Origin: an uncultured Victivallis sp.
GTDB lineage: Bacteria > Verrucomicrobiota > Lentisphaeria > Victivallales > Victivallaceae
Assembly: GCF_944389935.1 (NCBI RefSeq)
Contig: NZ_CALXOE010000010.1
Reading direction: 5' to 3' (one strand)
DNA length: 64,000 nt
Shown here: positions 86 to 14,886 of the stretch, one piece after another
Layout of the letters: each line of letters opens with the position of its first letter
How positions within the stretch are numbered: the stretch's first letter is position 1
Notes under the pieces: generated by a model
The model's input: only the letters and a program-made list of their open reading frames with translations
Told to the model about the DNA's origin: nothing
Database searches by the model: none
Position numbers and translations under genes: made by a program

Positions 86-1711
86 TTAACGCCGATCCGG
101 ATCGAGACCGATCTGATCGAAGCCGTACTCATTTTCATCGATGGATTTGAGACCGAATTCATCGATTTTCCGCTTCGTCTCGGCGGAGAGTTTTTCGATC
201 TCGCCGGAGACCCGGGTTGTGGGAGTTCCGGGCTTGACGGTCAGGACCGCCACGATCCGGCTCTTTTTAACCGTCTCGCTCTCCCCCGAAAAGAGCCACC
301 CGAGCCCGGGGATATCCCCGAGAAACGGAACCTTGCTCACGCTGCGGACCAGGTCGGACTTCTCCAATCCTCCGATGTAGAAGACACTGCCCTTGTTGTT
401 GACCTGCAGCGTTGTCGCCAGCTCGGTCCGGCTGGTGCGCGGAGTCCCGTCGCTGTGGAATCCGAGCAGATTCGTGTTCTCCATCGCAACCCGGACGATC
501 GTCGACTCGCCGTAGACCTCCGGCAGAAGTTCCATCCGGAAACCGAACTCCGCGTTATTGGTTGTGCGCAGCCGGCTCTCTTTCACGGTCGTGACGGTGG
601 TTTCACCGGGTTTGTTCGCAGTCAGCGTCAAAGGCTCGCTCTGTCCCGGAATCGAAATGGTGATCTCGGACGTATCGTTCACGGTTTCCGCAATCTGCGT
701 CTCTCCATCACCGATGACGGGGAAACGGGTCACGCTCTCGATCGTGCCCACCGCCTTGTTCCAGACATTCAGCGTCCCGCTGGTCAACACTTTCGCCTTG
801 CTCTTGCTGACGAGAAAGTCCAGATACTTCGCATTCCACTTCGGATTGAAGTTGATGTAGTTCACATGGGCGTCCTTGACCATTTCCGTCGCGTTGCCGA
901 TCGTTCCGATCAGCGGATCCCATCCGTTCAGATAGGTCGCTCCCGCGGCGAAGAGATCAGCGCCGGGCCCGTTCTTCCACGCCTGGAAATCGACTCCGAG
1001 ATTGCCGTCGTTCTCGCTGTCGATCTCATAGATCGTGTAGGTGAACAGCGCTTCCGAAAGCGGCGTATCGTACTGCGCGAGCAGAGCTTCGATGTTCTTC
1101 TGAGAAATCGGCGTACAGAAGAACAGCAGTGCGTTCATGCCGTTGTCCGGTCGAACAGTGTCCACTCCGTCGAGTTCGACGGCGTCGTCGGCGTGCATGA
1201 TTCCGACCTGTTCAATCAGTTTCGCCAGCGTCGTCGCATCGAAATATTTCGCGTAGTAGACGAAGAAGCGGCGTCCGGCCTGCGCGGAGAGATCGGGTCG
1301 ATCCAGCATCTCCACGACCTGGTCGATGGTCATTCCGTTATCGAGTTTTTCAAAGCGGTACTGCTCCGCCGAGACGATCACCATTCCGGTGCCGTCGACA
1401 TATTTGATCGCTTCGACTTTCGTCTCGTTCGTGTCGATCCGCCGGGACCGGATGGCCGACATCAGGTACGGCCGGATCTCGTAGGGATCGGCGTGCTTGA
1501 GTTTGTACACTTTCGTATAGACATACGGGTCGTTGTTCGTATTGATGAACGTGATTTCGTCGGTCGACTTGTCGATCGACACGTTCAGCTGCGGCTGAAC
1601 CTGGGTCGGCAGCGCCGGCGGAGTCGGGATATCCACGGTTCCCGCACAGAGTTTCCCCGAAACGAGAAACGCGGCGAGAACACCCGATGTAAGTTTCGGA
1701 TTGAAAACCAT
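86..1711 (-). CDS. Secretin-family (type II/III secretion system protein D-like) outer membrane protein, paralog 2
   Basis: Signal-peptide-like N-terminus; N-domain VYKLKHADPYEI; barrel start YTIYEID..NLGVDF; C-terminal IGGLEK..KVPFLGDIPGLGWLF. Start set at ATG 1711 after AAGGAG. Confidence 0.8.
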   Translation of the reverse strand: MVFNPKLTSGVLAAFLVSGKLCAGTVDIPTPPALPTQVQPQLNVSIDKSTDEITFINTNNDPYVYTKVYKLKHADPYEIRPYLMSAIRSRRIDTNETKVEAIKYVDGTGMVIVSAEQYRFEKLDNGMTIDQVVEMLDRPDLSAQAGRRFFVYYAKYFDATTLAKLIEQVGIMHADDAVELDGVDTVRPDNGMNALLFFCTPISQKNIEALLAQYDTPLSEALFTYTIYEIDSENDGNLGVDFQAWKNGPGADLFAAGATYLNGWDPLIGTIGNATEMVKDAHVNYINFNPKWNAKYLDFLVSKSKAKVLTSGTLNVWNKAVGTIESVTRFPVIGDGETQIAETVNDTSEITISIPGQSEPLTLTANKPGETTVTTVKESRLRTTNNAEFGFRMELLPEVYGESTIVRVAMENTNLLGFHSDGTPRTSRTELATTLQVNNKGSVFYIGGLEKSDLVRSVSKVPFLGDIPGLGWLFSGESETVKKSRIVAVLTVKPGTPTTRVSGEIEKLSAETKRKIDEFGLKSIDENEYGFDQIGLDPDRR

Positions 1712-1728
1712 TTGAATCACTCCTTTCC

Positions 1729-3159
1729 TCATTCAGCCTTATTTTCTTTGTTCATTGCGGTCAATGTATCGATCATCTCGCCGGCGGCGGGAGTGGGAAG
1801 ATTCTCCGTCTCAACCGGTTTGGCGGTCATGGTTACAAAGACTCTCAGTTTGCTGTCGACCTTGCTTTCCGAACCGAACAGATACTTCAGCACCGGAATG
1901 CTTCCGAGAAACGGCATGCCGATATACTGTTCGACCATCACATGCTTGTCGAATGCGCCGACGAGTTTCTCCACGCCGGTGTCGAGCGTCAGACTCCCGG
2001 AAAAGCGGTTGCTTTCGATCGAGGCGTTTCCGACATTGTCGACTTCCGCCAGGGAGTTGATCGTCAGACTCCAGTTGCTCATGAGAGTGAGTTTCCCCTC
2101 GGACGGATCGGCGGTGAAGTTGATGGACGGAGCGTAGAACTCGAATTCAAAACTCGACTCCGCCAGCGCACCGATCGCGATGGTCTGATTCTCATCTTTC
2201 ACGATGTTCTGGAATTCCGGGGCAAACGTCAGCCGGAACACCCCTTCCCCGGTGTCGTTCGCCGCCGGATCGAAGCTGTTGATCAGCGTAAGCGATCCGG
2301 ACGACGCGGTCCACGCCTTTCCTTTCTGTGCGAGCATCCGCAGAAAGGTTGCATCGATGTTCGGAGCAACCAGAATGCCGCCGATGCCGTTCACGGAATT
2401 CGGCAGGAAACCGAGAATGCTTTCAAACGCCTCCGGTCCGAGCGAATCGAAATCCGCATGCAGATCCGCGAAGTTGAATCCGGTCGAAAGCAGCTGCGCC
2501 CCGGGTCCGTTCTTCCAGGAGAGATAATCGATTCCGAGTTCACGGAAATCATTATCGCTGACGACGTAAACATCGAACTTCACCTCAAGCTGCGGGACCG
2601 GACGGTCGAGCGTTTTCAGCAAAGAGAGATACGCCTCCCCCTGGGATTTGGAACTCTTGAAATAGAACAGATTGCTCGGGCCATCGTAGAAAGACGCACC
2701 CTCCCCTCCCGCGGAGGTGAACACCTGTTCGAGCGCCTTGTACATCGTTTCGCTGCCGCGATGAACCGGTGCATAGACCCAGCGGCTGATGCCGTCACCC
2801 TCGATGCGCGCCCCGGATTCGTCGACTTTCGGGGATGGATAGTCGAGCGTGGCGATCATCTCGTCGACCCAGGGGAGAAACGTACTCCCGGTGGAGACGA
2901 CGAGAAACTGTTTGCCGCCGCTGGAATAATCGACGCTCTGCACTCGTGACTGGCTGTCGAATCGTTTGACCGCTCCGCGCACAAACGGCATCAGGTCGTG
3001 AGCCCGGACATTTTTGAGTTCATAGACTTTGGTGGTCATGTAGTGCTGATTGCGATCCTCGTTGAATACGATGGTCCGCTGATTGCCCTCTTCCGCGCAG
3101 AGCAGCGCGGGCAGCGTGCACAACAGGGCCGCGAGCTTCCATGGGTTGATGCATTTCAT
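1729..3159 (-). CDS. Secretin-family outer membrane protein, paralog 1
   Basis: Signal peptide; VYELKNVRAHDL N-domain; LEVKFDVYVV..ELGIDY; GMPFLGSIPVLKYLF secretin signature; AGGAGG RBS. Confidence 0.75.
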   Translation of the reverse strand: MKCINPWKLAALLCTLPALLCAEEGNQRTIVFNEDRNQHYMTTKVYELKNVRAHDLMPFVRGAVKRFDSQSRVQSVDYSSGGKQFLVVSTGSTFLPWVDEMIATLDYPSPKVDESGARIEGDGISRWVYAPVHRGSETMYKALEQVFTSAGGEGASFYDGPSNLFYFKSSKSQGEAYLSLLKTLDRPVPQLEVKFDVYVVSDNDFRELGIDYLSWKNGPGAQLLSTGFNFADLHADFDSLGPEAFESILGFLPNSVNGIGGILVAPNIDATFLRMLAQKGKAWTASSGSLTLINSFDPAANDTGEGVFRLTFAPEFQNIVKDENQTIAIGALAESSFEFEFYAPSINFTADPSEGKLTLMSNWSLTINSLAEVDNVGNASIESNRFSGSLTLDTGVEKLVGAFDKHVMVEQYIGMPFLGSIPVLKYLFGSESKVDSKLRVFVTMTAKPVETENLPTPAAGEMIDTLTAMNKENKAE

Positions 3160-3229
3160 TCGGCTACCTCCTGGTTTACGGGTTGACCCAATGGCGCCCG
3201 ATGTCGGACGCCGCGGATATCAATGGTTG

Positions 3230-3246
3230 AGCAGGAAGAATGCCAA
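3230..3246 (-). promoter_or_regulatory. Sigma54-type (-24/-12) promoter of the secretin pair
   Basis: Minus strand TTGGCATTCTTCCTGCT = GG-N10-GC in TGGCA..TGCT context; 16/17 identical to the motif at 14782-14798. Confidence 0.75.
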
Positions 3247-3335: not shown

Positions 3336-3375
3336 ACAAAATTGTGTAAGAAAAATCTCCGTTTAACAAAATTGT
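3336..3375. promoter_or_regulatory. Two ACAAAATTGT palindromic sites (candidate enhancer/UAS)
   Basis: ACAAAATTGT at 3336-3345 and 3366-3375, 30 bp apart, ~90-130 bp upstream of the -24 element. Confidence 0.6.
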
Positions 3376-3438: not shown

Positions 3439-4272
3439 TCAGAGCTCGGGGAGCAGCATCCGCAGCAGAATCGTGATCATTCCGCCGGGAGTCTCAAGCT
3501 CCTCAAGAATCGTGAAGTGGTTGCGCCCGGCCAGCGTGAACGCGCCGCCGGGAAGTTTCGCCGCCGCCCGATGCCGGGCGAAATCCCAGCTCTGGCGCTG
3601 CAGTTCCGGCAGCTCGTCCGAACCGCAGACCGCGAACAGCGGTTTTTCCGACAGAGGAAGTCGAAGCGGACTCAGGCCGGCGACCTCTTCGGGTTTCAGA
3701 AGAAGTTTATCGTTCAGGCAGCAGAGGCGGATCGGCTCCAGATCGAAGATGCCGCTGATCGCGAGGACACCGGTTACGCCCGGTTCGTCGGCCGCCATGG
3801 CCGCGAGATGCCCGCCCGCCGACCAGCCTGCGACGACGATCCGGGAACGGTCGAATCCGAGAGAATCGGCGTGTTCCCGCAGCCAGCGCAGCGCATCGCG
3901 AATCTCCGTGACGATTCCGGCCAGATTCTGTTCCGGCGCCAGCGTATACCCCGACAGCGCCACCGAAATTCCATGATGCAGCGCCCCCGCCGCCAGAAAC
4001 CGGAACGTCTCCTTGCGCCGCATCTGCCAGTAGCCGCCGTGGATGAACACCAGAAGCGGCGCGCCGGGAGAACCGGCACGGAAAAAATCGATGCGCTGCC
4101 GCTCCCGCGGCCCGAAGCGCAAGTTCAGCTCCCCGGGATATCGCTCCGCCAGCAGACGGCTGCGCGCCTCGAATCCCACGAGAATCCGCGCGCTGTCGGC
4201 GACCGCGCGCGTATTGTCGTAAGCCGCGTCGAGTTCTTCACGGGTCAGGAAATCACGATAGAGCGCTGTCAT
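3439..4272 (-). CDS. Alpha/beta hydrolase, arylformamidase/esterase-like
   Basis: HGGYW oxyanion motif, GWSAGGHL nucleophile elbow, C-terminal GRNHF His; overlaps the end of atzF. Confidence 0.85.
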   Translation of the reverse strand: MTALYRDFLTREELDAAYDNTRAVADSARILVGFEARSRLLAERYPGELNLRFGPRERQRIDFFRAGSPGAPLLVFIHGGYWQMRRKETFRFLAAGALHHGISVALSGYTLAPEQNLAGIVTEIRDALRWLREHADSLGFDRSRIVVAGWSAGGHLAAMAADEPGVTGVLAISGIFDLEPIRLCCLNDKLLLKPEEVAGLSPLRLPLSEKPLFAVCGSDELPELQRQSWDFARHRAAAKLPGGAFTLAGRNHFTILEELETPGGMITILLRMLLPEL

Positions 4273-6007
4273 GGGATGCCTCTCGATGCGATTTCCGTTT
4301 CCGTTCTTTCACCCGGACGCGCCAGTCGGCGACCTCGGAGATGTCCGGCGCATACTCCGCGATGACCGCCTCTCCGATGAATCCCGGCACCCGCCGTCCG
4401 TCCGCCAGCTCCAGGGTGCCGAGCCCGAGCGGAGGGCGGATACCGGCGACAAATTCGGCGAAAGAGTCCGCTTCAAGCTCATAGAGCTCCACATAGCAGG
4501 ATACGCCCCCCCTGCCGGTTCGCAGCAGGGCCGGGCGGGCGCCCCCCTCCTCCAATTCGTACATCCGATAGCATGGAGCGGTTTTCGCGCAGCCGAGAAA
4601 GCGCGCGCCGAGCGCCTCGAGCTCCGGATGCAGCGGCATCCCGGCGAGATGCGCACCGCAGACCGCGATCGGAAACCTCTCCGCACTCCGGAAACGGCGC
4701 GCCGCTTCCAGAAGCCTGTAATCGTCGAACGCTTTCCCCACCAGCGTGATTCCGAAAGGAAGATCTCCGGCGCGATCCGCCGGAACAGCCAGCGCCGAAC
4801 AGTCCAGCAGGTTCATATAATTGGTGTAGTATCCGAGATTGCTGTTGAGCCGGATCGGATCGGCTTCGACCTCGTCGATCCGGTAGATGGTTCCGGCGGT
4901 CGGCGTGAGAATCAGATCCACCGCCGCAAACTGCGCATCCGCCGCCGCCCTGCACTCCTGAAGCCGGTACATCGCCCGGAAAACCTCCGATGGATGCGGC
5001 GTCCGCTCCGGCGTGATGATCGACCGGATCACCGGCAGCACCGAATCCGGATGTGTTTCAATGAACTCCCCGACCGCCGCGTAGCGCTCAAACACCCACG
5101 GCCCCTCGTAAAGCAGCCGTGCCGCCGTCAGAAACGGGGTGAAATCGATCTCCACTTTTTCGCCGCCCGCATCCTGCATTCTCCGCACCGCCCGCCGGAA
5201 CGCCTCCCGGTACTCCTCCCGGCCGAAGAACGCGAGATCCTCCTCACGCGGGACACCGAATTTCCAGTGACGCGGCAGCGGATCACGTTCCGGCAGAACC
5301 CGGCTGTAGGCATCCTCCGGGTCGAAGCGGGCGGTTGTTTCCAGCAGGATTCCGGCATCCTCGAGATTCCGGGCGAAGATCGAAACGCAGTCGAGCGAGC
5401 GGCAGGCCGGCACTACGCCGCGGCAGCTCAGGACTCCCCGGCTCGGCTTGACTCCGACAAGTTCATTGAACGCCGCCGGAACCCGGCCGGAGCCCGCCGT
5501 ATCGGTTCCCAGAGAAAAACTGCACAGATCGTACGCCAGCGCCGCGGCCGATCCGCTGCTCGATCCGCCGGAAACATATCCCGGCGCCAGACGGTTCGGT
5601 GCCGCCCCGTAAGGAGAACGCACGCCGACCAGACCGGTGGCGAACTGATCCATATTCGTCTTGCCGAGCGGAACGGCTCCGGCTTCGATCAGGAGTTCCA
5701 CCACCCGCGCGGAACGCTCCGGCCTGTAGCTGTAGTCCGGACACCCCGCCGTCGTCGGCAGCCCGGCCACATCGATGTTGTCTTTCACGGCAAACGGAAT
5801 CCCGTAAAGCGGAAGTTCCTCCGGCGAAGATGCTTCAAGTCCGGCGAGCCGAACCTCCAGCTGCTCCCGGTCGATCAGAGAAATCCAGATCCCGTCCGGA
5901 GCGGCGGCACATGCGTCGAGCAGTTCCGTAAGGACGCGACGCGGGGTCTTCGACCCGTTTCGATACGCCCGCCTGAGGGCGGCGATCGACAATTCGCAAC
6001 TTCTCAT
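4253..6007 (-). CDS. atzF: Allophanate hydrolase
   Basis: LYGIPFAVKDNIDVAGLPTTAGCP, GGSSSGSA, GTDTAGSGRVPA amidase signature; C-terminal IAVCGAHLAGMPL domain. Confidence 0.95.
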   Translation of the reverse strand: MRSCELSIAALRRAYRNGSKTPRRVLTELLDACAAAPDGIWISLIDREQLEVRLAGLEASSPEELPLYGIPFAVKDNIDVAGLPTTAGCPDYSYRPERSARVVELLIEAGAVPLGKTNMDQFATGLVGVRSPYGAAPNRLAPGYVSGGSSSGSAAALAYDLCSFSLGTDTAGSGRVPAAFNELVGVKPSRGVLSCRGVVPACRSLDCVSIFARNLEDAGILLETTARFDPEDAYSRVLPERDPLPRHWKFGVPREEDLAFFGREEYREAFRRAVRRMQDAGGEKVEIDFTPFLTAARLLYEGPWVFERYAAVGEFIETHPDSVLPVIRSIITPERTPHPSEVFRAMYRLQECRAAADAQFAAVDLILTPTAGTIYRIDEVEADPIRLNSNLGYYTNYMNLLDCSALAVPADRAGDLPFGITLVGKAFDDYRLLEAARRFRSAERFPIAVCGAHLAGMPLHPELEALGARFLGCAKTAPCYRMYELEEGGARPALLRTGRGGVSCYVELYELEADSFAEFVAGIRPPLGLGTLELADGRRVPGFIGEAVIAEYAPDISEVADWRVRVKERKRKSHREASHDSALS

Positions 6008-6031
6008 CGAGTCTCTCTCCTTTCCCTCTGC

Positions 6032-6075
6032 CCGTCCCGCGTCCCGAACCGGACCGGCGTGGAAACGCGGGACGG
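6032..6075. other. Intercistronic stem-loop between uca and atzF
   Basis: CCGTCCCGCGT (6032-6042) / ACGCGGGACGG (6065-6075), 11 bp perfect stem in a 75 bp gap. Confidence 0.55.
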
Positions 6076-6082
6076 ACGAGGT

Positions 6083-9000
6083 TCAATTCGTCTTTACAGC
6101 GAACAGACACTGTCCGCTCTTGACCTCGTTCCCGGCGGCACAGAAGATCCGGACGATTTCGCAGTCGGACTCCGCGGCTACCGGAATTTCGGTTTTCATG
6201 CTCTCGAGCACCGCCAGAATCTCTCCGGCGCGAACTCGTCTGCCGGGCTCGCTGACGTTCAGTTTCCAGAGACTGCCCGCAACCGGCGAGTAAACCCCGC
6301 TCTCACCGGGTTTCAACTCGGCCTCCTCCGCGGGCGCGGCGCTTTCGACCGTATGGCTCTCGAAAGTGAGCTGGCCATTGGCGATCCAGCGCTCTTTCTC
6401 CTCTTCAAAGGCCCGTTTCCGCTTCGTCTCGAAGGCTTCGATGGAAGCGGCGTTCTCCTCGAGGAACTTCTCATATTCCTGAATATCGAACACGCTCTCT
6501 TCCATGCGGATATGGTATTTCCCCGCGATGAAGTCGCGCCGGATTTTCAGCAGTTCATCCGCCTCGACCGGGAAGAACCGGACCTGATCGAAGAATCGGA
6601 GCAGATAAGGTTTGCCCTCCACAAACTCCGGCGTGACGTTGAAGCGGTTCCACATCTGAACCGTCCGTCCGACGAACTGGTAGCCGCCAGGCCCCTCCAT
6701 TCCGTAAACGCACATGTACGCGCCGCCGATGCCGACGGCGTTTTCGGGCGTCCAGGTCCGGGCGGGGTTGTACTTGGTTGTGACCAGACGGCGGAGCGGA
6801 TCCAGCGGCGTCGCCACCGGCGCGCCGAGATAGACGTCTCCGAGACCCATTACGATGTAATTCGCGTCGAACACGATCTTTGCGACCTCCTCGACGGAAT
6901 CGAGCCCGTTGATCCGCCGGATGAATTCGATGTTGTTCGGGCAGCACCAGGGGGCGTCCGGACGAACCGTGCTGACGTACTTCTGAATCGCGAGACGTGT
7001 CGCCGGGTCGTCCCAGCTCAGCGGCAGATAGACCGTGCGGGTCGGAACCGAGCGGATCGTCTCCGTTTTGAGTTTTTCGGCCAGAGCGGCGATCAACTTC
7101 AGGAGCTCCTCCTGCGTCATCTTCGCCGGATCGAAATGAATCTGAATCGAACGGATTCCCGGCGTGATGTCGAGAATCGCCGGCAGGTGCATCTCCTCAA
7201 GTTTGAGCATCCACGCATGCGCCGTAAAGCGGAGTCGCAAATCGATGACCGGCGGTCCGAACTCCAGCAGGAAATTCGCGTCTCCATCCTGACGGCAGAC
7301 GATGCGGGACATCGCGTCCTCACGATGAAACTCCGCCAGAACCGGCGACCCGGAAACCGTGCCGACAGGTTCCGCAACCGGGTGATCCGCCTTTTCCGGG
7401 TGCTCCAGAATCGCCTCGAGCGCCTCGCGACGTTCAGCAGCCTGCGCCGGAGTGACGGGAATGAACTTCACCTTGTCTCCGCTGCGGAGCTGCCCGACTT
7501 TCCAGAGATCCGCCGTGATGATCGTCGCAGGACAGACGAACCCGCCGAGGCTCGGCCCGTCCTTGCCGAGAATCACCGGCATGTCGCCCGTGAAGTCGAT
7601 CGTTCCGACGGCGTAGGCGTTGTCATGCAGATTGGACGGATGCAGTCCGGCCTCTCCGCCGTCCGGACGCGCCCACTTCGGCCGGGGACCGACCAGCCGG
7701 ACGCCGGTACGCGAGGAGTTGTAATGGACCTCCCATTCCGCACGGAAGAACTCCTCGATGTCCTGATCCGTGAAGTAGTCGGGCGCGCCGTGCGGCCCGT
7801 AAAGAACGGCGATCTTCCAGCTGTTCCCGATGGACGGAACGGCACCTGCCGCCGGAGACAGCGGTTCGAAAACCTTCCAGTTGCCGATATGGAGCACGTC
7901 GCCCGCGGCGAGCGCCCTCCCCCCGTGTCCGCCGAAACGGCCGAGCGTAAACGTCGAACGGCTGCCGAGGTACTCCGGCACGTCGATTCCGCCGGCGACG
8001 GCGAAATAACAGCGCTGCCCGCAACGGGTTGTGCCGACTTTGAGCACATCGCCCTTCTTCGCGGCGATCGGCGTGTTCCGGGAGATCTCCGTTCCGTTCA
8101 GTGTCGCCGGAAACTCTCCGCCGGTCAGAGCAAAGAGCGCATCCGTATTGAAGCGGAGCGAGGCGCCCGAAAGCGTCATCTCCAGCCCCGGAGCCTCCGG
8201 CGCGTTTCCGACGATCCGGTTGGCCAGCCGGAAACTGTACGCATCCATCGGCCCCGACGGCGGAACGCCGACCGCCCAGTAACCGAGACGGCCGGGATAA
8301 TCCTGCACCGTGGTCTGCGTTCCCGGGGAGAGAATTTCAAACGTCGGCGCAGAATAGGCATATTCTTTCAGCAGCCAGGTTCCGGCCCGCCCCTCGCGGA
8401 ACGGCGCCATGCCGAGGACGTCGCGCAGCAGCAGAAGATTGGTTTCAAATCCGGCGATCTCGGTCGCCTTGAGCGCTTCTTCCGCCTTGCGGATCACCTC
8501 GGCGCGGTCTCCGCCTTTCACGATGATCTTCGCGAGCAGCGGGTCGTAGAACGCGCTGACTTCAGTTCCGGTCGAAATCCAGGTGTCGCACCGGACGCCC
8601 GCTGGAAACGCCGCGCGCGTGACCAGTCCGCTCGACGGCTGGAAGTTCCGGCCGGGATCCTCCGCGTAAATCCGGAACTCCATGGCCGCCCCCTCGGGAC
8701 GGAAACTCTCCCCCGGCCGGAACGGACTCTCTCCGGCGGCGAGCCTCACCATCCACTCGACCAGATCGATTCCGAACACGGACTCCGTGACGCCGTGCTC
8801 GACCTGCAGCCGCGTATTGACTTCCAGAAAATAGAAACGATCCGCCTCGCTGTCGTATATGAATTCGACGGTTCCGGCAGACCGATAAGCGACCCCCTCC
8901 GCGAGCCGGCGGGCCGCCTCATGAAGCGCGCGCCGGGTCGCGTCCGGCAGATTCGGCGCGGGGGTCTCCTCGATCACTTTCTGGTTGCGCCGCTGGACGG

Positions 9001-9685
9001 AACAGTCGCGTTCGCCGAGAATCGCAACGCCGCCCTTTCCGTCGCCGAAAATCTGCACCTCGACGTGGCGGGCGCGCTCGATGTACTTCTCCAGAAACAG
9101 CCCCGAATCCTTGAAGTTGTTGCGGCTCAGGCGTCCGATCCGTTCAAACCCCTCCGCAAGCTCCTCATCGTTCCGGCAGATGCACATCCCGATTCCGCCG
9201 CCGCCGGCGGTGCTCTTGAGCATCACGGGATAACCGATTTCGGCAGCGGCCCGTTTCGCCGCCTGAACCTCATCCAGAAGTCCGCTCCCGGGGACAAGCG
9301 GAACACTCCAGCGTTCCGCAAGTTCCCGCGCCTTGTGCTTGAGCCCGAAGTCGACGAGCTGCTCCGGCGTCGGGCCGATGAATTCGATCCCGTTCCCGGC
9401 GCAGAGCCGCGCAAAAGAGGCGTTTTCGCTCAGAAAACCGTAACCGGGGTGAATCGCCTGCGCTCCGGTACGGCGGGCGGCGTCAAGAATCGCCTCCACA
9501 TTCAAATAGCTCTCCGCGGCCGATGCGGGGCCGACCCGCACCGCCTCATCCGCCTGCAGGACGTGGGCGGCGGTCGCGTCCGGGTCCGAATAGACGGCGA
9601 CGGACCCCACCCCCATCTTTCTGAGCGTGCGGATGATGCGGCAGGCGATTTCGCCGCGGTTTGCAATCAATACTTTCGTAAACAT
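6083..9685 (-). CDS. uca: Urea carboxylase family protein, probably guanidine-preferring
   Basis: Biotin carboxylase (ANRGEIA, HPGYGFLSEN), carboxyltransferase (GLHPSNLHDNAY, PENAVGIGG, GPGGYQ) and C-terminal biotinyl domain (ESMKTE). Confidence 0.95.
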   Translation of the reverse strand: MFTKVLIANRGEIACRIIRTLRKMGVGSVAVYSDPDATAAHVLQADEAVRVGPASAAESYLNVEAILDAARRTGAQAIHPGYGFLSENASFARLCAGNGIEFIGPTPEQLVDFGLKHKARELAERWSVPLVPGSGLLDEVQAAKRAAAEIGYPVMLKSTAGGGGIGMCICRNDEELAEGFERIGRLSRNNFKDSGLFLEKYIERARHVEVQIFGDGKGGVAILGERDCSVQRRNQKVIEETPAPNLPDATRRALHEAARRLAEGVAYRSAGTVEFIYDSEADRFYFLEVNTRLQVEHGVTESVFGIDLVEWMVRLAAGESPFRPGESFRPEGAAMEFRIYAEDPGRNFQPSSGLVTRAAFPAGVRCDTWISTGTEVSAFYDPLLAKIIVKGGDRAEVIRKAEEALKATEIAGFETNLLLLRDVLGMAPFREGRAGTWLLKEYAYSAPTFEILSPGTQTTVQDYPGRLGYWAVGVPPSGPMDAYSFRLANRIVGNAPEAPGLEMTLSGASLRFNTDALFALTGGEFPATLNGTEISRNTPIAAKKGDVLKVGTTRCGQRCYFAVAGGIDVPEYLGSRSTFTLGRFGGHGGRALAAGDVLHIGNWKVFEPLSPAAGAVPSIGNSWKIAVLYGPHGAPDYFTDQDIEEFFRAEWEVHYNSSRTGVRLVGPRPKWARPDGGEAGLHPSNLHDNAYAVGTIDFTGDMPVILGKDGPSLGGFVCPATIITADLWKVGQLRSGDKVKFIPVTPAQAAERREALEAILEHPEKADHPVAEPVGTVSGSPVLAEFHREDAMSRIVCRQDGDANFLLEFGPPVIDLRLRFTAHAWMLKLEEMHLPAILDITPGIRSIQIHFDPAKMTQEELLKLIAALAEKLKTETIRSVPTRTVYLPLSWDDPATRLAIQKYVSTVRPDAPWCCPNNIEFIRRINGLDSVEEVAKIVFDANYIVMGLGDVYLGAPVATPLDPLRRLVTTKYNPARTWTPENAVGIGGAYMCVYGMEGPGGYQFVGRTVQMWNRFNVTPEFVEGKPYLLRFFDQVRFFPVEADELLKIRRDFIAGKYHIRMEESVFDIQEYEKFLEENAASIEAFETKRKRAFEEEKERWIANGQLTFESHTVESAAPAEEAELKPGESGVYSPVAGSLWKLNVSEPGRRVRAGEILAVLESMKTEIPVAAESDCEIVRIFCAAGNEVKSGQCLFAVKTN

Positions 9686-9694
9686 GATCGTTTG

Positions 9695-10345
9695 TCACTC
9701 CTCTTGATCCCAGATGATCATCTCGACCGGAGTCGGATTGTAATCATTGCAGGGATTGTTCAACTGCGCACAGTTCGAGACGAGAACCAGAACATCCATC
9801 TCCGCAAGCAGATCGACGTACTTTCCGGCACCGGAAATGCCGTCAGCGAATTCCAGATGCCCGCTGTCGTCGAGCAGGACTTTCGTGAAAAAATTCAGAT
9901 TGCAGGTCTGGTCGCGCTTGCTCATCCCCGGCGTCTCCAGAAACTTCCGGACAAAAGTATCGCGGCAGCTGTGCATGTAACGGGTCCGATCGGTGTAACG
10001 GATCGTGTTCCCCTCCGCAGAGCAGCCGCTGCCGAGCGTATCGTGTTCGCCGCAGGTGTCTGCCACCACCCGGAACATGACGTTGTCGTCGTTGGAGCGG
10101 ATTTCTGTTCCAAGTTCGATCAGCGCCTTGCGCTGAGCCGCCAGCGTATTGTTGACGTTGTAGCGCTCGGCCGGGTTGTGCGCATTGTAGAGAAGCATGT
10201 CGACGGACTGGTTGCCGCAGAGATCGATGATCCGCAGGATCTGCCCTTTCTTCACGGTGTGCATCCAGCCGGTTCCGGCCTTGACGGTTTCCGAATAGAC
10301 GGCGGAAGCCCTGTCGCGCGGGATGTCCAACAGCTTATCGTTCAT
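9695..10345 (-). CDS. cgdB: DUF1989 urea carboxylase-associated protein, CgdB-like copy 2
   Basis: GNQSVD..YNA, DTCGEHDTLGSGCS, YMHSCRDTF, VSNCAQLNNPCN. Confidence 0.8.
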   Translation of the reverse strand: MNDKLLDIPRDRASAVYSETVKAGTGWMHTVKKGQILRIIDLCGNQSVDMLLYNAHNPAERYNVNNTLAAQRKALIELGTEIRSNDDNVMFRVVADTCGEHDTLGSGCSAEGNTIRYTDRTRYMHSCRDTFVRKFLETPGMSKRDQTCNLNFFTKVLLDDSGHLEFADGISGAGKYVDLLAEMDVLVLVSNCAQLNNPCNDYNPTPVEMIIWDQEE

Positions 10346-10360
10346 GTTCTTCTCTCCATT

Positions 10361-11005
10361 TCAGTTATCCCAGATGATCATTTTGACCGGCGTCGGATCG
10401 TAGCCGTTGCAGGGATTGTTCAGCTGCGGGCAGTTCGACACCAGAACGATGACGTTCATCATCGCCTGCAGTTCGATGTATTTCCCCGGAGAGGAGATGC
10501 CGTCGGCAAAATTGAGCCGGCCCTCCGCGTCGAGCGGAACGTACATGAAGAAATTCAGATTGTTGACCTGATCGCGTTTGTCCATCCCCGGCGTCGCAAG
10601 CAGTTTGGCCAGAAACGTCTCACGGCAAGCATGCATGTAGCGCGTATGGAACCCGTAACGGATCATATTGCTTTCGCAGGAACAGGCGCTGCCGAGCGTA
10701 TCGTGATCTCCACAGGTGTCGGCCACCACCTTGAGCATGACGTTGTCGTCGTTGGAGCGCAGCTCGGTTCCGAGCCCGACGAGGGCGTTCCGCTGCGCTT
10801 GAACCGTCTGCTGCACGCTGTAACGCTCATAAATGTCATCGGCGTTGTAGAAGATGGTGTCGACCGCCTGATTGCCGTTCACATCGACGATCCGCAGGAC
10901 CTGTCCCTTTTTCACGGTGTGCATCCATCCGTCACCGGCCTTGACGGTTTCGACATAAACGGCATCGGCCTCTTTGCGATTGCTTTCAAGATATTCCGTA
11001 ACCAT
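10361..11005 (-). CDS. cgdB: DUF1989 urea carboxylase-associated protein, CgdB-like copy 1
   Basis: GNQAVD..YNA, DTCGDHDTLGSACSCESN, YMHACRETF, VSNCPQLNNPCN. Confidence 0.85.
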   Translation of the reverse strand: MVTEYLESNRKEADAVYVETVKAGDGWMHTVKKGQVLRIVDVNGNQAVDTIFYNADDIYERYSVQQTVQAQRNALVGLGTELRSNDDNVMLKVVADTCGDHDTLGSACSCESNMIRYGFHTRYMHACRETFLAKLLATPGMDKRDQVNNLNFFMYVPLDAEGRLNFADGISSPGKYIELQAMMNVIVLVSNCPQLNNPCNGYDPTPVKMIIWDN

Positions 11006-11014
11006 GACATCACC

Positions 11015-11746
11015 TCACGCAAGATAAAGTTCAGTTGCAATGAAACCCCGCTCGTTCTCCGGACACCAGGTGAAACAGGGATCCTCTTTTGTGCCGGGTT
11101 CGCAGCGGTAAACCGTCGCCTTGATCGGCTTGCGCGGATATTCGGTCGCGGGAGAAAGCGGATGCATACCGGTATCGAGAATCACCAGCGTATCGATCTC
11201 CGCGCGCAGGTCGACGTAATCGCCGGGTTTGGAGTTGCCCTCGATGAAACTCATGCCACCCTTGTCATCCACAATGACTTTGGAGAAGAAGTTGATGATC
11301 TCCGTGAAGTCGCGTTTGGTCATGCCGTGCTTGCCCAGTTCGACGAGCAGAGAGTCGTAACCGTTCCGGTAGAAGTCGTTGTGCGCCTCCTGATACTCCT
11401 TCTTCCCGAATTTCTTCTCGATGAGGGAGGCGTGGGCGCAGCCGCAGAGCATGTCGTGCCATCCGCAGGTGTCCGCGGGAACGCTCATGAGAATCCGCCC
11501 CATGTCGGAGTAGATGCAGCAATCTTTCGTGAGGCGGCAGATATGTTGAATCTTCAGGGTGTCCCCGAGATTGAACCGTTCCGAGAAATTCGCGGCGTTG
11601 TAGAACATGGCCGAAACGTTTCCGCCGCCCTCGATATCGGTCAGCCGCAGAGCCTGGCCCCGGCGAATGATGCGCGAGTAGTTCCAGCCTCCGGCGATGG
11701 TGGTTTCCGTGATGATCCGATCCGTGATGTCGCTGTTCATAATCAT
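11015..11746 (-). CDS. cgdA: DUF1989 urea carboxylase-associated protein, CgdA-like
   Basis: GGNVSAMFYNA, DTLKIQH, YSDMGRILMS, CGWHD, INFFSKV, HPL motifs typical of the first subunit. Confidence 0.85.
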   Translation of the reverse strand: MIMNSDITDRIITETTIAGGWNYSRIIRRGQALRLTDIEGGGNVSAMFYNAANFSERFNLGDTLKIQHICRLTKDCCIYSDMGRILMSVPADTCGWHDMLCGCAHASLIEKKFGKKEYQEAHNDFYRNGYDSLLVELGKHGMTKRDFTEIINFFSKVIVDDKGGMSFIEGNSKPGDYVDLRAEIDTLVILDTGMHPLSPATEYPRKPIKATVYRCEPGTKEDPCFTWCPENERGFIATELYLA

Positions 11747-11762
11747 ACCTCCTGTTCAGGTT

Positions 11763-12662
11763 TTACAAAAATGTCTTGTCGCCGACCATGTTGACGACTT
11801 TGAATTCACACTCGTCTTCCCGCTTGACGGGGGGACGGATCAACTTGTCGATGTGCTCCCGGGTTGCGAGGAATTCCGGTTCGAGCAGCATCCGCGAACG
11901 GCGCGGCCGCGGGAGCGGAACTTCGATGAGTTCATTGATTTCGCCCGGATTCGCTTTCAGAGCCAGAATGCGGTCGGAGAGATAGACCGCCTCGTCCAGA
12001 TCGTGCGTCACGAAAATGATCGTGATGTCGATGTTCCGCCAGACTTCGAGCAGATAGTTCTGCATCTGAGTCCGGGTCTGCGCGTCGAGCGCCCCGAACG
12101 GTTCGTCCATGAGCAGAACGCGCGGCTGAGGCGCGAGGGCTCTGGCGATCGCCACACGCTGCTGCATGCCTCCGGAAAGCTGTCCGGGATAGTAGTCCGC
12201 ATACCGGGCCAGCCCGATGATGTCCAGCCACTGCAGCGCGATGTTTTCGGCGGTGTCGCGATCCTTGCCGATCGATTCCAGCCCGAACATGACGTTCCGG
12301 CAGACGGTCAGCCAGGGGAAGAGCGTGTACTTCTGAAAGACCATCCCGCGTTCCGCGCCGGGAGCGACGACCGGTTTGCCGTCCAGCAGAATTTCCCCGG
12401 AAGTCGCCGTCTCGAGTCCGGCCAGAATGCGGATCAGCGTCGACTTTCCGCAGCCGGAGGGACCGATGATCGAGAGGAACTCCCGCTGATGGACCTGAAA
12501 CGAAATATCTTTCAGGACAATCTGGTTTTTTCCGCTGGAAGTCGGAAACTCCTTGAAGAGATTCCGGGTTTCCATGATGACCGGGCGGCGAACCAGCCGG
12601 GCGAACCGGTCACGCACCTCGGGACTCATCATTTGTTTGTAATCAGGCAGAGTGCTGTTCAT
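11763..12662 (-). CDS. ABC transporter ATP-binding protein (TauB/SsuB-like)
   Basis: [29 protein letters not shown]; start set at ATG 12662 after AGGAGG. Confidence 0.93.
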
Positions 12663-13749
12663 CTCTTTTCCTCCTCTCCTCTTTGGAAAGAACGATCGAA
12701 AACACCTGGTCGCGGGGACCGAAAATCTCCTCCGCCGCCCGGTAGAAAATCCCCTTGTGCTTGCTCTCCCACGGGAAGATCTGGCGGCCGAACCACGCGA
12801 GGAACATATCGCAGAACAATCCGATGCAGCCGATGATGATGATCGCGGCATACACATTGGAAAAGTCCCGGTATTTCGCCTGCTGGTTGATGAACCAGCT
12901 GATTCCGGAGCTCGTTCCGACGACCTCCGCGACGATCAGATAGGTCCACGCCCATCCGAGCAGAATCCGCATATCCTTGTAGAGCCGCGGGAGAACACTC
13001 GGGATGATGACTTTCATGAGGATTCTTCTCCGGGATGCCCCGAGAGTCTGAGCCGCTTCGATCAACGCGCCGTCCGCGCTGCGGGTGGTATTGGCCACCA
13101 TCGGCAGCTGCTGGAAAAAGGTTCCGATGAAGATGATCGCAATCTTCGGCGCATCGTTGATTCCGAGGATCGCCACGCACAGTGTCGCAAACACCGGCGC
13201 GGGGAAATAACGGAAAAATTCGATGAACGGTTCGATCAGACGCTCGAAAAACGGAAATGTCCCACAGAGAATCCCCAGCGGGACACCGAAGAGCGAAGAG
13301 ATCAGAAATCCGAGAAACACAATCCGGATGCTGTGCCCGATGCTCTCGTGAAACCACGCCTCCCCGTCGCGGCGCGGCGGAGTCAGAAACGCGGTCACCA
13401 GCGACCGGGCAACCTGATGCGGCGCAGGGAGGTAAGCGGGATTCGCCCGCTCCCCCCGCATGATTTTTCCGCCGCTCGAGGCCAGTTCCCGATTTTCCTC
13501 TTCAAACGCGCTGCGCTCGATAAGGTCGCCCGGGGCGCACAGGAAGCTGTCCCCCGCGTCCGTCACCCGAACCAGCGGATGATAGAGAAACGGGACGTAG
13601 CTTACCAGGCACCAGAGCAGGAGCGGCAGTGCGAACGAGAGAAACAGCAGAATATATTCCTGACGTCTGGTTAATTTTTTTCGTATGGCAAAACAGCCAA
13701 CGTTCTGCATTTTCATCATGAACTTCCTCAATCCGGAACCGTGAATCAT
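12643..13749 (-). CDS. ABC transporter permease (TauC/SsuC-like)
   Basis: Hydrophobic helices, EAAQTLGAS loop, [11 protein letters not shown]; ATGA overlap with upstream gene. Confidence 0.92.
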
Positions 13750-14738
13750 TTCTGACGGGACAGATACTCTTTCGTAAAGATCGGCGTGATATGCCGGTTC
13801 ACATCGACGCTTTTCTTATAGATCTTATTCCCGAAGAAGAACTTGTCGACAATTTCCGAAGAACCGTAAATGGAGTCGAATCCCGGCGTTTTACGGAAAC
13901 GGGCCAGCGCCTCCTCGGCGGTGAGAAAACGAGTCCCGTCGATATAGTCTCCATATTTTTTCTCAGAAACCCCGACCCGGTCCGCCATGATTTTGATCGC
14001 TTCCGGCCGGGTTGCCGGATCGTTCAGGAAATCGATGACATCGTACCAGGCGGCAATGACTTTCTTCCATTCATCGCGATGCTTCATCAGACTTTCCGTC
14101 GAAACCGTCAGCACATCGTAGATGATTCCGGGCTCGTCCGCGCTCGTATAGATGGCTTTTGATCCCTTCACGAGTTCAAGCGCGTTGCCCGAGTGCGGCT
14201 GCCAGGCGACCACGGCATCGACCTCGCCGGTCTCGAGGATCTGCGCGGCCTGATGGGTCGGCATATTCACGAGTTCCACGTCCGACTCTTTCAGTCCGTT
14301 TTTCGTAAGAGCATTGATGAGAAGCGCATGACTCAGACAACCGAATTCAACCCCGACCTTTTTGCCCTTGAGTTCCTTGACGGAATTGATTCCGGGGCGG
14401 GCGACGATTTTGTCGTTGCCGTTGCTGTAATCGTTGATGAGGATGATGACGTTCCGCGCGCCGGTCGCATTGAGCACCATCGCGTCGCCGTTGGAGAGTC
14501 CGACCGCATCGATTTTCCCGACGGAAAACGCATCAAGTGAGGGCCCGTACTCGAACCACTCGAGTTTGACCTTGACGCCGTGTTTCTGGAAAAATCCCTT
14601 CTTGTCGGCGATCTCCCAGGCGGTCCAGCCCGGCCAGTCGCTGTATCCGATCCGGAGCGTCGGCTGATCGGCCGCCATCATCACCAGAGGAGCAATGGCA
14701 CTGAGGATTCCAGCTATGACAAATTTAAAACCACTCAT
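13746..14738 (-). CDS. ABC transporter substrate-binding protein (NMT1/SsuA-like, urea carboxylase-associated)
   Basis: Signal peptide, IGYSDWPGW, DYSNGNDKIV, AWQPH; start ATG 14738 after AAGGAGG. Confidence 0.9.
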   Translation of the reverse strand: MSGFKFVIAGILSAIAPLVMMAADQPTLRIGYSDWPGWTAWEIADKKGFFQKHGVKVKLEWFEYGPSLDAFSVGKIDAVGLSNGDAMVLNATGARNVIILINDYSNGNDKIVARPGINSVKELKGKKVGVEFGCLSHALLINALTKNGLKESDVELVNMPTHQAAQILETGEVDAVVAWQPHSGNALELVKGSKAIYTSADEPGIIYDVLTVSTESLMKHRDEWKKVIAAWYDVIDFLNDPATRPEAIKIMADRVGVSEKKYGDYIDGTRFLTAEEALARFRKTPGFDSIYGSSEIVDKFFFGNKIYKKSVDVNRHITPIFTKEYLSRQK

Positions 14739-14781
14739 TTTCAACCTCCTTTTCTCATGAACGGTTGGATGCCCTCTTTGC

Positions 14782-14798
14782 AGCAGGATGAATGCCAA
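14782..14798 (-). promoter_or_regulatory. Sigma54-type (-24/-12) promoter of the guanidine/urea operon
   Basis: Minus strand TTGGCATTCATCCTGCT = GG-N10-GC, ~45 nt upstream of the first start codon. Confidence 0.78.
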
Positions 14799-14844
14799 CC
14801 TTGTTTTTGAGGGGGAACAGGTCGATACAGCCCGATTTTGTTTT

Positions 14845-14886
14845 ACAATTTTGTTCAAACCGGAGATCGCATACGACCAATTTTGT
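14845..14886. promoter_or_regulatory. Two ACAAWWTTGT-type sites (candidate enhancer/UAS)
   Basis: ACAATTTTGT at 14845-14854 and CCAATTTTGT at 14877-14886, 32 bp apart; same motif as 3336-3375. Confidence 0.55.

Follow-up and report, generated by a model that had tools for sequence, protein, structure and literature searches.

A strictly paired set of divergent secretins in Victivallales as a candidate outer membrane channel induced by nutrient limitation

Secretion systems, pili, and filamentous phages use secretins as their homo-oligomeric exit gates, and to our knowledge every secretin characterized so far is a homo-multimer. A different arrangement might be encoded in the 64,000-nucleotide stretch of DNA analyzed here (the window), which belongs to contig NZ_CALXOE010000010.1 of an uncultured Victivallis species (assembly GCF_944389935.1). 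Two strongly diverged secretin genes, termed A and B, follow one another there on the minus strand, and relatives of these genes recur as A-then-B pairs wherever the flanking DNA permits the arrangement to be judged. The reading that we prefer is that A and B are two subunits of one obligate, machine-independent outer membrane channel that is specific to the order Victivallales and is induced by nutrient limitation, and we give it a probability of about 45%. Such a module would be set apart from described secretins by its always-paired two-gene architecture, its independence from a larger machine, and its apparent wiring to nutrient regulons.

Secretin A (P0002; 1729-3159, minus strand) is a protein of 476 amino acids (aa) in which a signal peptide precedes two small N-domains, the secretin barrel domain, and a helix at the C terminus, and its gene is preceded by the Shine-Dalgarno sequence AGGAGG (3167-3172, minus strand). 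Secretin B (P0003; 86-1711, minus strand) comprises 541 aa when counted from the ATG at 1711, and its signal peptide is followed by a low-complexity linker of ~40 residues, two N-domains, a secretin barrel that holds a short variable insert, and, at the C terminus, a helix and a tail. The signal peptides are visible in both sequences. The longest open reading frame (ORF) for B (P0001; 86-1732, minus strand) begins at an in-frame ATG at 1732 and encodes 548 aa. The ATG at 1711 is most likely the true start because the Shine-Dalgarno sequence AAGGAG held by the spacer between the genes (1725-1720), a public gene call of 541 aa, and the resulting gap of 17 bp (1712-1728, minus strand) all fit this choice.

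The first-pass annotation of this DNA had described A and B as divergent secretin paralogs that share private motifs and are separated by only 17 bp, and this description holds up in full. Each motif quoted there was located: KVYELKNVRAHDL in A has the counterpart KVYKLKHADPYEI in B, PFLGSIPVLKYLF in A has the counterpart PFLGDIPGLGWLF in B, and the WKNGPGAQL of A (in which WKNGPGA spans residues 215-221) reappears as WKNGPGADL in B. The two proteins align end to end over about 515 columns with 24% identity (E 3e-26), which is strong divergence for a similarity that is nevertheless far beyond chance, and the 17 bp separate the A stop codon from the ATG at 1711. Among 58 A-type sequences W-K-N-G(-P-G) is invariant, as is W-K-N-x-x-G among 57 B-type sequences, and WKNG(P)G occupies the same place in both proteins. 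The two families also are equally conserved, with mean column identities of 39% for A and 38% for B.

Evidence for a functional partnership comes from the persistence of the pair. The genome that contains the window (G000) is 99.7% complete and yields 12 matches to the Secretin domain, including three A-then-B pairs, one of which is the pair in the window (on C10) whereas the others are located on C6 and C33. The A proteins of these pairs are about 33% identical to each other and the B proteins about 35%, compared to about 23% between A and B, which indicates that the A/B split predates the multiplication of the pairs. A scan for relatives, using one genome per species, recovered 359 A-type sequences, and the locus counts given throughout refer to the best 80 of these 359. 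A same-strand B-type ORF directly follows A in 75 of the 75 loci with enough downstream DNA; the remaining five loci run off the end of a contig and thus are uninformative for pairing. Likewise, five near-complete genomes hold 13 A genes and 13 B genes, all of which (13/13) are arranged as A-then-B neighbors. No lone copy of A or B was found among these 75 loci and 13 cases, and none of the 80 loci showed A and B fused into one ORF. The gap between the genes has a median length of 22 bp and measures 30 bp or less in 63 of 74 loci.

Phylogenetic comparisons point in the same direction. The A and B trees are congruent, with a correlation of r = 0.95 between patristic distances (Mantel test, 0/999) and with the same nearest neighbor for 56 of 71 pairs. 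The congruence of these trees shows that the pairs have been inherited and duplicated as units with no partner swapping, a pattern that does not by itself prove contact between the partners. Annotations of the homologs, which occur in Victivallis, Victivallales, and Lentisphaerae records, are only hypothetical or GspD-like. Asking if the two clades always occur together had been proposed as a check on the original idea, and in this sample they do. Thus, the idea of a two-paralog secretin is strongly supported by sequence comparison as far as obligate partnership is concerned. An obligate two-secretin unit can be considered well supported because co-occurrence, short intergenic gaps, congruent trees, similar conservation, and full secretin-fold models for both proteins all favor it.

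Other arrangements of related genes were encountered in the genome of one relative, designated G014. Two pairs stand there in direct tandem, in the order A-B-A-B (C1:2224258-2231541). The same genome carries a lone secretin of 477 aa (C1:3110043-3111191) whose scores against the A and B profiles are equally weak (about 70 and 66 bits) and that may be an unduplicated relative of the A/B family.

Family models place both proteins within the secretin superfamily. Scores against the Pfam Secretin model (PF00263) are 28.9 bits for A and 74.4 bits for B, both above the gathering cutoff of 27.5. Matches to Secretin_N (PF03958), which represents the ring-building domain, are weak and fall just under the cutoff of 28.2 (27.4 bits for B and 22.4 bits for A). 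The GspD model TIGR02517 gives 90.8 bits for B and 25.3 bits for A without reaching its equivalog cutoff of 351, and the PilQ model TIGR02515 (51.4 and 26.9 bits; cutoff 284) and the SctC model TIGR02516 (47.3 and 28.0 bits; cutoff 238) also are not reached. The PilQ, MshL, SctC, and HofQ models score below GspD, and no named subfamily model comes near its cutoff. By these scores, A and B are secretin superfamily members that lie outside all named subfamilies.

Predicted structures support the same assignment. AlphaFold2 (AF2) monomer models built on the 58 A-type and 57 B-type sequences reach moderate confidence, with predicted local distance difference test (pLDDT) values of 70 for A and 66 for B. 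In both models the signal peptide leads into two N-domains of beta-alpha-beta-beta-alpha type, after which come about eight long barrel strands and a C-terminal helix. Foldseek searches with the A model retrieve PulD, GspD, InvG, PilQ, and pIV (E 2e-16), and those with the B model retrieve GspD (E 9e-17), InvG, PilQ, and pIV, in each case with a probability of 1.0 for the top matches. Accordingly, each of the two models contains a full secretin protomer fold, consisting of an N3-type domain and the strands of a double-walled barrel. Confidence is low where the first barrel strand gives way to the segment that carries WKNGPG (residues 211-266 of A and 234-302 of B) and at residues 341-378 of B, in an insert between barrel strands (residues 339-380, window about 570-695). 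This B insert spans 42 residues here and 117-177 residues in most relatives, is longest in pairs that are linked to pst or cys genes, and could be a variable cap or filter region.

In ordinary secretins the N0 domain couples the channel to an inner membrane machine, and in GspD this domain docks on GspC. A and B are N0-less, because a Pfam search with E<=1 gave no match to the STN/N0 families for either protein, because B aligns to the GspD model TIGR02517 only from position 161 of 600, and because only a short linker of fewer than 45 residues connects the signal peptide to the first N-domain.

Comparison with known systems helps to define what is distinctive about the pair. The best combined match in sequence family and fold is GspD (PulD, EpsD, XcpQ; TIGR02517; PDB 6hcg, 5wq8, 6i1y), which shares with A and B an N3-type domain, a double-walled secretin barrel protomer, and a C-terminal helix. 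Unlike GspD, A and B lack both N0 and N1, no gsp operon or pilotin gene is found near the pair in the window, two different subunits are always encoded together, and the regulation and neighbors are of a nutrient-uptake type. The best PDB sequence match for A is the pIV secretin of filamentous phage (PDB 7ofh; E 1.4e-12), which likewise is compact and has few N-domains. However, pIV is a homo-15-mer that works with inner membrane proteins of the phage and exports a filament. The PilQ 14-mer in complex with a TsaP heptamer (PDB 6ve2) is another fold match and forms a ring in which neighboring subunits are not equivalent, but PilQ comes from one gene, is a component of the pilMNOPQ machine, and has AMIN and N0 domains.

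The promoter region of the pair provides clues regarding its physiological role. A sigma54-type -24/-12 element, TGGCATTCTTCCTGCT (3230-3245, minus strand), lies about 70 nt upstream of the A start codon and has the correct spacing between the -24 GG and the -12 GC. Upstream of this element are two ACAATTTTGT boxes (3336-3345 and 3366-3375, minus strand) that are 30 bp apart and that are presumed to be sites for an enhancer-binding protein. At the other end of the unit, 13 bp after the B stop codon, a hairpin with a 15 bp stem and T-runs on both sides (41-73; L011 12553-12585) resembles a bidirectional terminator and probably closes the bicistron. Because A has its own promoter upstream and B is followed by the terminator hairpin, the predicted unit in the window is a bicistron made up of the sigma54 promoter with two boxes, A, the 17-bp gap, B, and the terminator.

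Searches of the genome associate this promoter type with nitrogen metabolism. The strict sigma54 consensus TGGCAC-N5-TTGC gave no match even with one mismatch allowed, and the relaxed pattern TGGCAY-N5-YTGCW gave two matches in the window, compared to 0.1 expected, and 22 in the genome. Strict ACAAWWTTGT boxes are rare, with only 15 in the 3.6 Mb genome. A strict or one-off box lies no farther than 130 bp upstream of five of the 22 sigma54-like sites, compared to 0.02 expected, and these five boxed promoters precede the genes for glutamine synthetase (GS) type III (E 2.7e-183 to PDB 3o6x), the glutamate synthase large chain GltB (E 7.6e-268), and Amt (E 1e-71), as well as a urea/guanidine operon and secretin A. 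Both rpoN and the genes for at least six enhancer-binding proteins are present in the same genome. Orthologous loci L015-L017 retain both the promoter and the boxes, and a -24/-12 element is found just upstream of A in 13 of 75 loci, including loci with a divergent amt gene. On this evidence the A/B bicistron is a predicted member of the nitrogen-assimilation regulon. Boxed sites lie at C2:10593 (minus strand) and 10725 (plus strand), where the GS type III and GltB genes diverge, and at C15:36450 (plus strand).

The urea/guanidine operon occupies positions 3439-14858 on the minus strand of the window and encodes an NMT1-type binding protein, the permease and ATPase of an ABC transporter, three DUF1989 paralogs, a urea/guanidine carboxylase of 1200 aa, an allophanate hydrolase, and an esterase, a gene set that looks like a guanidine or urea degradation pathway. 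Its promoter region (14782-14886, minus strand) contains a -24/-12 element, TGGCATTCATCCTGCT (14782-14797), that is near-identical to the element of A, and likewise includes two boxes (14845-14854 and 14877-14886). The annotated TTG start codon of the first gene overlaps this promoter, and so the true start is taken to be an ATG that lies about 40 nt after the -12 element.

Gene associations in relatives extend this picture to other nutrients. Twelve of the 80 loci lie in or beside pstSCAB-phoU with phoBR, as in L037, where the order is phoB-phoR-metallophos-A-B-pstSCAB, and six of the 80 are beside amtB-glnK (P-II). In L034 the pair is located inside an operon with the order cysP-cysT-cysW-cysA-A-B-cysK-metY-like, and in L041 it comes after a sulfite-reductase-like gene. 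When only the nearest ORF is tallied, PstS-type binding proteins (10) and Amt (4) are the top families on either side. A quick tree places pst-linked pairs on several branches and the cys-linked pairs as sister to the main pst clade. Judged from promoters and gene neighborhoods, the pairs thus appear as members of starvation regulons or uptake operons. A KdpD label for the upstream gene in L033 and L053 was discarded, since Pfam tallies show PheT there, and two KdpD-positive upstream ORFs in the tally were never located at loci, so that no kdp link is claimed.

The Pho-regulated Hxc type II system of Pseudomonas is a precedent for export that is induced by starvation. A rather unlikely alternative, which is the leading one among those considered, holds that the pairs are interchangeable outer membrane portals for type II secretion system or type IV filament machines encoded elsewhere, and that they serve the starvation-induced export of scavenging enzymes or fibers. 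The Victivallis genome has about ten matches to the T2SSE family of ATPases at roughly seven loci, and a secretin adjoins such an ATPase only at C36 and C50, where the canonical secretins of this genome are encoded, which implies that some of the machines need a secretin from elsewhere. In addition, some pairs are near genes for hydrolases, such as the esterase in the window, Metallophos proteins in the pst loci, and glycosidases. However, A and B offer no N0 domain on which an inner membrane platform could dock. ATPase, platform, and pilin families (T2SSE, T2SSF, and the pilins) also are absent from the 25 most frequent neighbor families listed for each side of the 80 loci, where one RcpC was seen, and no pilMNOP genes were found at the three pairs of the Victivallis genome. 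Furthermore, ammonium and sulfate importers do not depend on a secreted enzyme, the Metallophos protein (243 aa) resembles a regular member of the Pho regulon, and the A/B unit has a promoter and terminator of its own.

The distribution of the pairs counts in favor of a role in uptake. The phylum Verrucomicrobiota was sampled with 150 genomes in addition to that of the window, which belongs to the class Lentisphaeria and the order Victivallales. In a search for A-type genes, the A/B module was found in 37 of 44 Victivallales genomes, compared to 0 of 107 elsewhere in the phylum sample; within the order it is present in 21 of 23 genomes of family f1, 15 of 15 of family f2, the one genome of family f4 (1/1), and 0 of 5 of family f3. 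In the Victivallis genome, which encodes BamA, searches for Porin_O_P, Porin_4, OprB, OMP_b-brl, and the TonB-dependent receptor barrel all came back negative. Among genomes of the order, 0 of 44 yielded TonB-dependent receptors, compared to 91 of 107 elsewhere in the phylum sample, and Porin_O_P was found in 0 of 49 genomes of the class, compared to 49 of 102 elsewhere in that sample. Cultured Lentisphaerae genomes have been described as being without ExbB (PMC11361711). Within the genomes and families searched, the distribution of A and B is shown to be complementary to that of the classical uptake channels.

These considerations lead to a proposal for how the preferred channel might work. 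A and B would co-assemble, in the simplest form as an alternating ring of, for example, seven A and seven B subunits. Such a 7x2 arrangement is geometrically feasible, given that a sevenfold partner sits on 14 subunits in PDB 6ve2. The pore could then pass small hydrophilic nutrients across the outer membrane when these are scarce. The pair in the window might admit nitrogen compounds (ammonium, urea, or guanidine, for example), and paralogous pairs in other genomes might admit phosphate or sulfate. Gate mutants of the pIV secretin are leaky to maltopentaose, deoxycholate, and antibiotics (PMC8563730), which implies that the secretin fold can serve as a diffusion channel, even though leakiness is a mutant phenotype and not the function of pIV.

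By acting in this manner, the A/B pairs would take the role that starvation-induced specific porins have in other phyla. The closest functional parallels might be OprP/OprO and PhoE (Porin_O_P and relatives), which occupy the same pst-adjacent niche and are presumably under nutrient-limitation control, as are the A/B pairs. There is no sequence or fold kinship with these proteins, however, which are trimeric beta-barrels of 16 to 18 strands. Taken one step further, the proposal is that Victivallales turned a duplicated secretin into hetero-oligomeric, machine-free A+B diffusion pores and wired the pairs to Ntr, Pho, and Cys control as starvation-inducible nutrient gates. This broader version is offered tentatively, as a conjecture that is somewhat more apt to fail than to hold.

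Several observations weigh against a nutrient channel and must be accounted for. A secretin ring of normal size is a very wide pore for ions, and a fixed, narrow aperture has to be assumed. Net charge fails to separate pairs linked to anion uptake from those linked to ammonium, in that the ranges for pst or cys loci and for amt loci overlap in five regions per protein. The AF2 models are only moderate in quality and are poor exactly where the motif and the gate side lie. An obvious neighbor for nutrient uptake is missing at about two thirds of the 80 loci, some of which are located by sugar or housekeeping genes, and related loci are not independent samples. Furthermore, the absence of porins was judged from only five Pfam families in the sampled genomes, and family f3 of the order manages without A/B pairs and also without the classical channels.

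The partnership itself can be explained in another way, which is that A and B form two separate homo-oligomeric rings that are merely coexpressed and have distinct tasks, or that one protein is an assembly helper for the other. Consistent with this possibility, each protein is predicted to have a complete secretin fold, and homo-multimers are the rule among all characterized secretins. Independent channels would nonetheless be expected to be lost or moved singly at times, and none of the 88 pairs checked (0/88) had done so. The order of A followed by B with a short gap is invariant, and the WKNG(P)G motif is invariant at the same place in both proteins. Separate rings or a helper thus seem quite improbable. 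A third explanation is that the pairs take up polymeric nutrients, for instance DNA or peptides, through pores analogous to HofQ/PilQ in DNA uptake, and that scarcity of phosphorus or nitrogen induces them. In its favor, competence-type secretins admit DNA, which is a source of both elements, and the pairs have links to the Pho and Ntr regulons. It is very improbable, however, given that no ComEA, ComEC, or pilus genes were seen beside the pairs, that the sulfate-assimilation link does not fit DNA, and that A and B are without N0 domains.

If A and B indeed form a shared nutrient channel, they would represent the first natural hetero-oligomeric secretin and the first secretin that imports small solutes instead of exporting a filament or protein. 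The known range of functions for the secretin fold would be broadened, and the finding would address how nutrients enter through the outer membrane in a gut and sediment lineage that lacks recognizable porins or TonB-dependent receptors. The A/B module also would provide a natural system for studying ring assembly, gating, and the setting of aperture in secretins. A search of the literature for hetero-oligomeric, tandem, or paralogous secretins, or for secretins in Lentisphaerae or Victivallis, revealed nothing relevant, which is not proof of absence.

The surroundings of the three pairs in the Victivallis genome differ from one another. The pair in the window (C10) has the esterase, the urea/guanidine operon, and unknown genes as neighbors. 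At C6, a tyrosine phosphatase gene is located upstream and an amino-acid permease gene starts 60 bp after B. At C33, the neighbors are a triose-phosphate isomerase gene and unknown genes.

Some candidate genes around the pair in the window were set aside. ORFs of 228/255 aa and of 1017 aa downstream of B (L011 8847-12593, minus strand) were considered as parts of the unit and rejected on the grounds that the terminator lies between; they lack any Pfam or family match, and the closest orthologous loci do not have them but carry a DUF7544 gene in this place. No family match supports the long antisense ORFs of up to 2507 aa (32-2137, 1942-2949, and 4271-11794, plus strand), which probably arise as artefacts in GC-rich coding DNA.

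A second and different secretin tandem was noted in the same genome (G000:C33:35666-40808; L014 5667-8258 and 8284-10809, plus strand). Its two proteins are 863 and 841 aa long, share 26% identity (E 2e-72), and have TPR-like N-termini, and their genes are preceded by a PilM-like gene and two unknown genes. Like A and B, these are adjacent, diverged secretin paralogs, but they are far larger, lack the WKNGPG motif, and belong to a pilus-type operon with PilM. This tandem is possibly another two-gene secretin, one that operates inside a pilus-type operon, and its presence suggests that two-gene secretins recur in this lineage.

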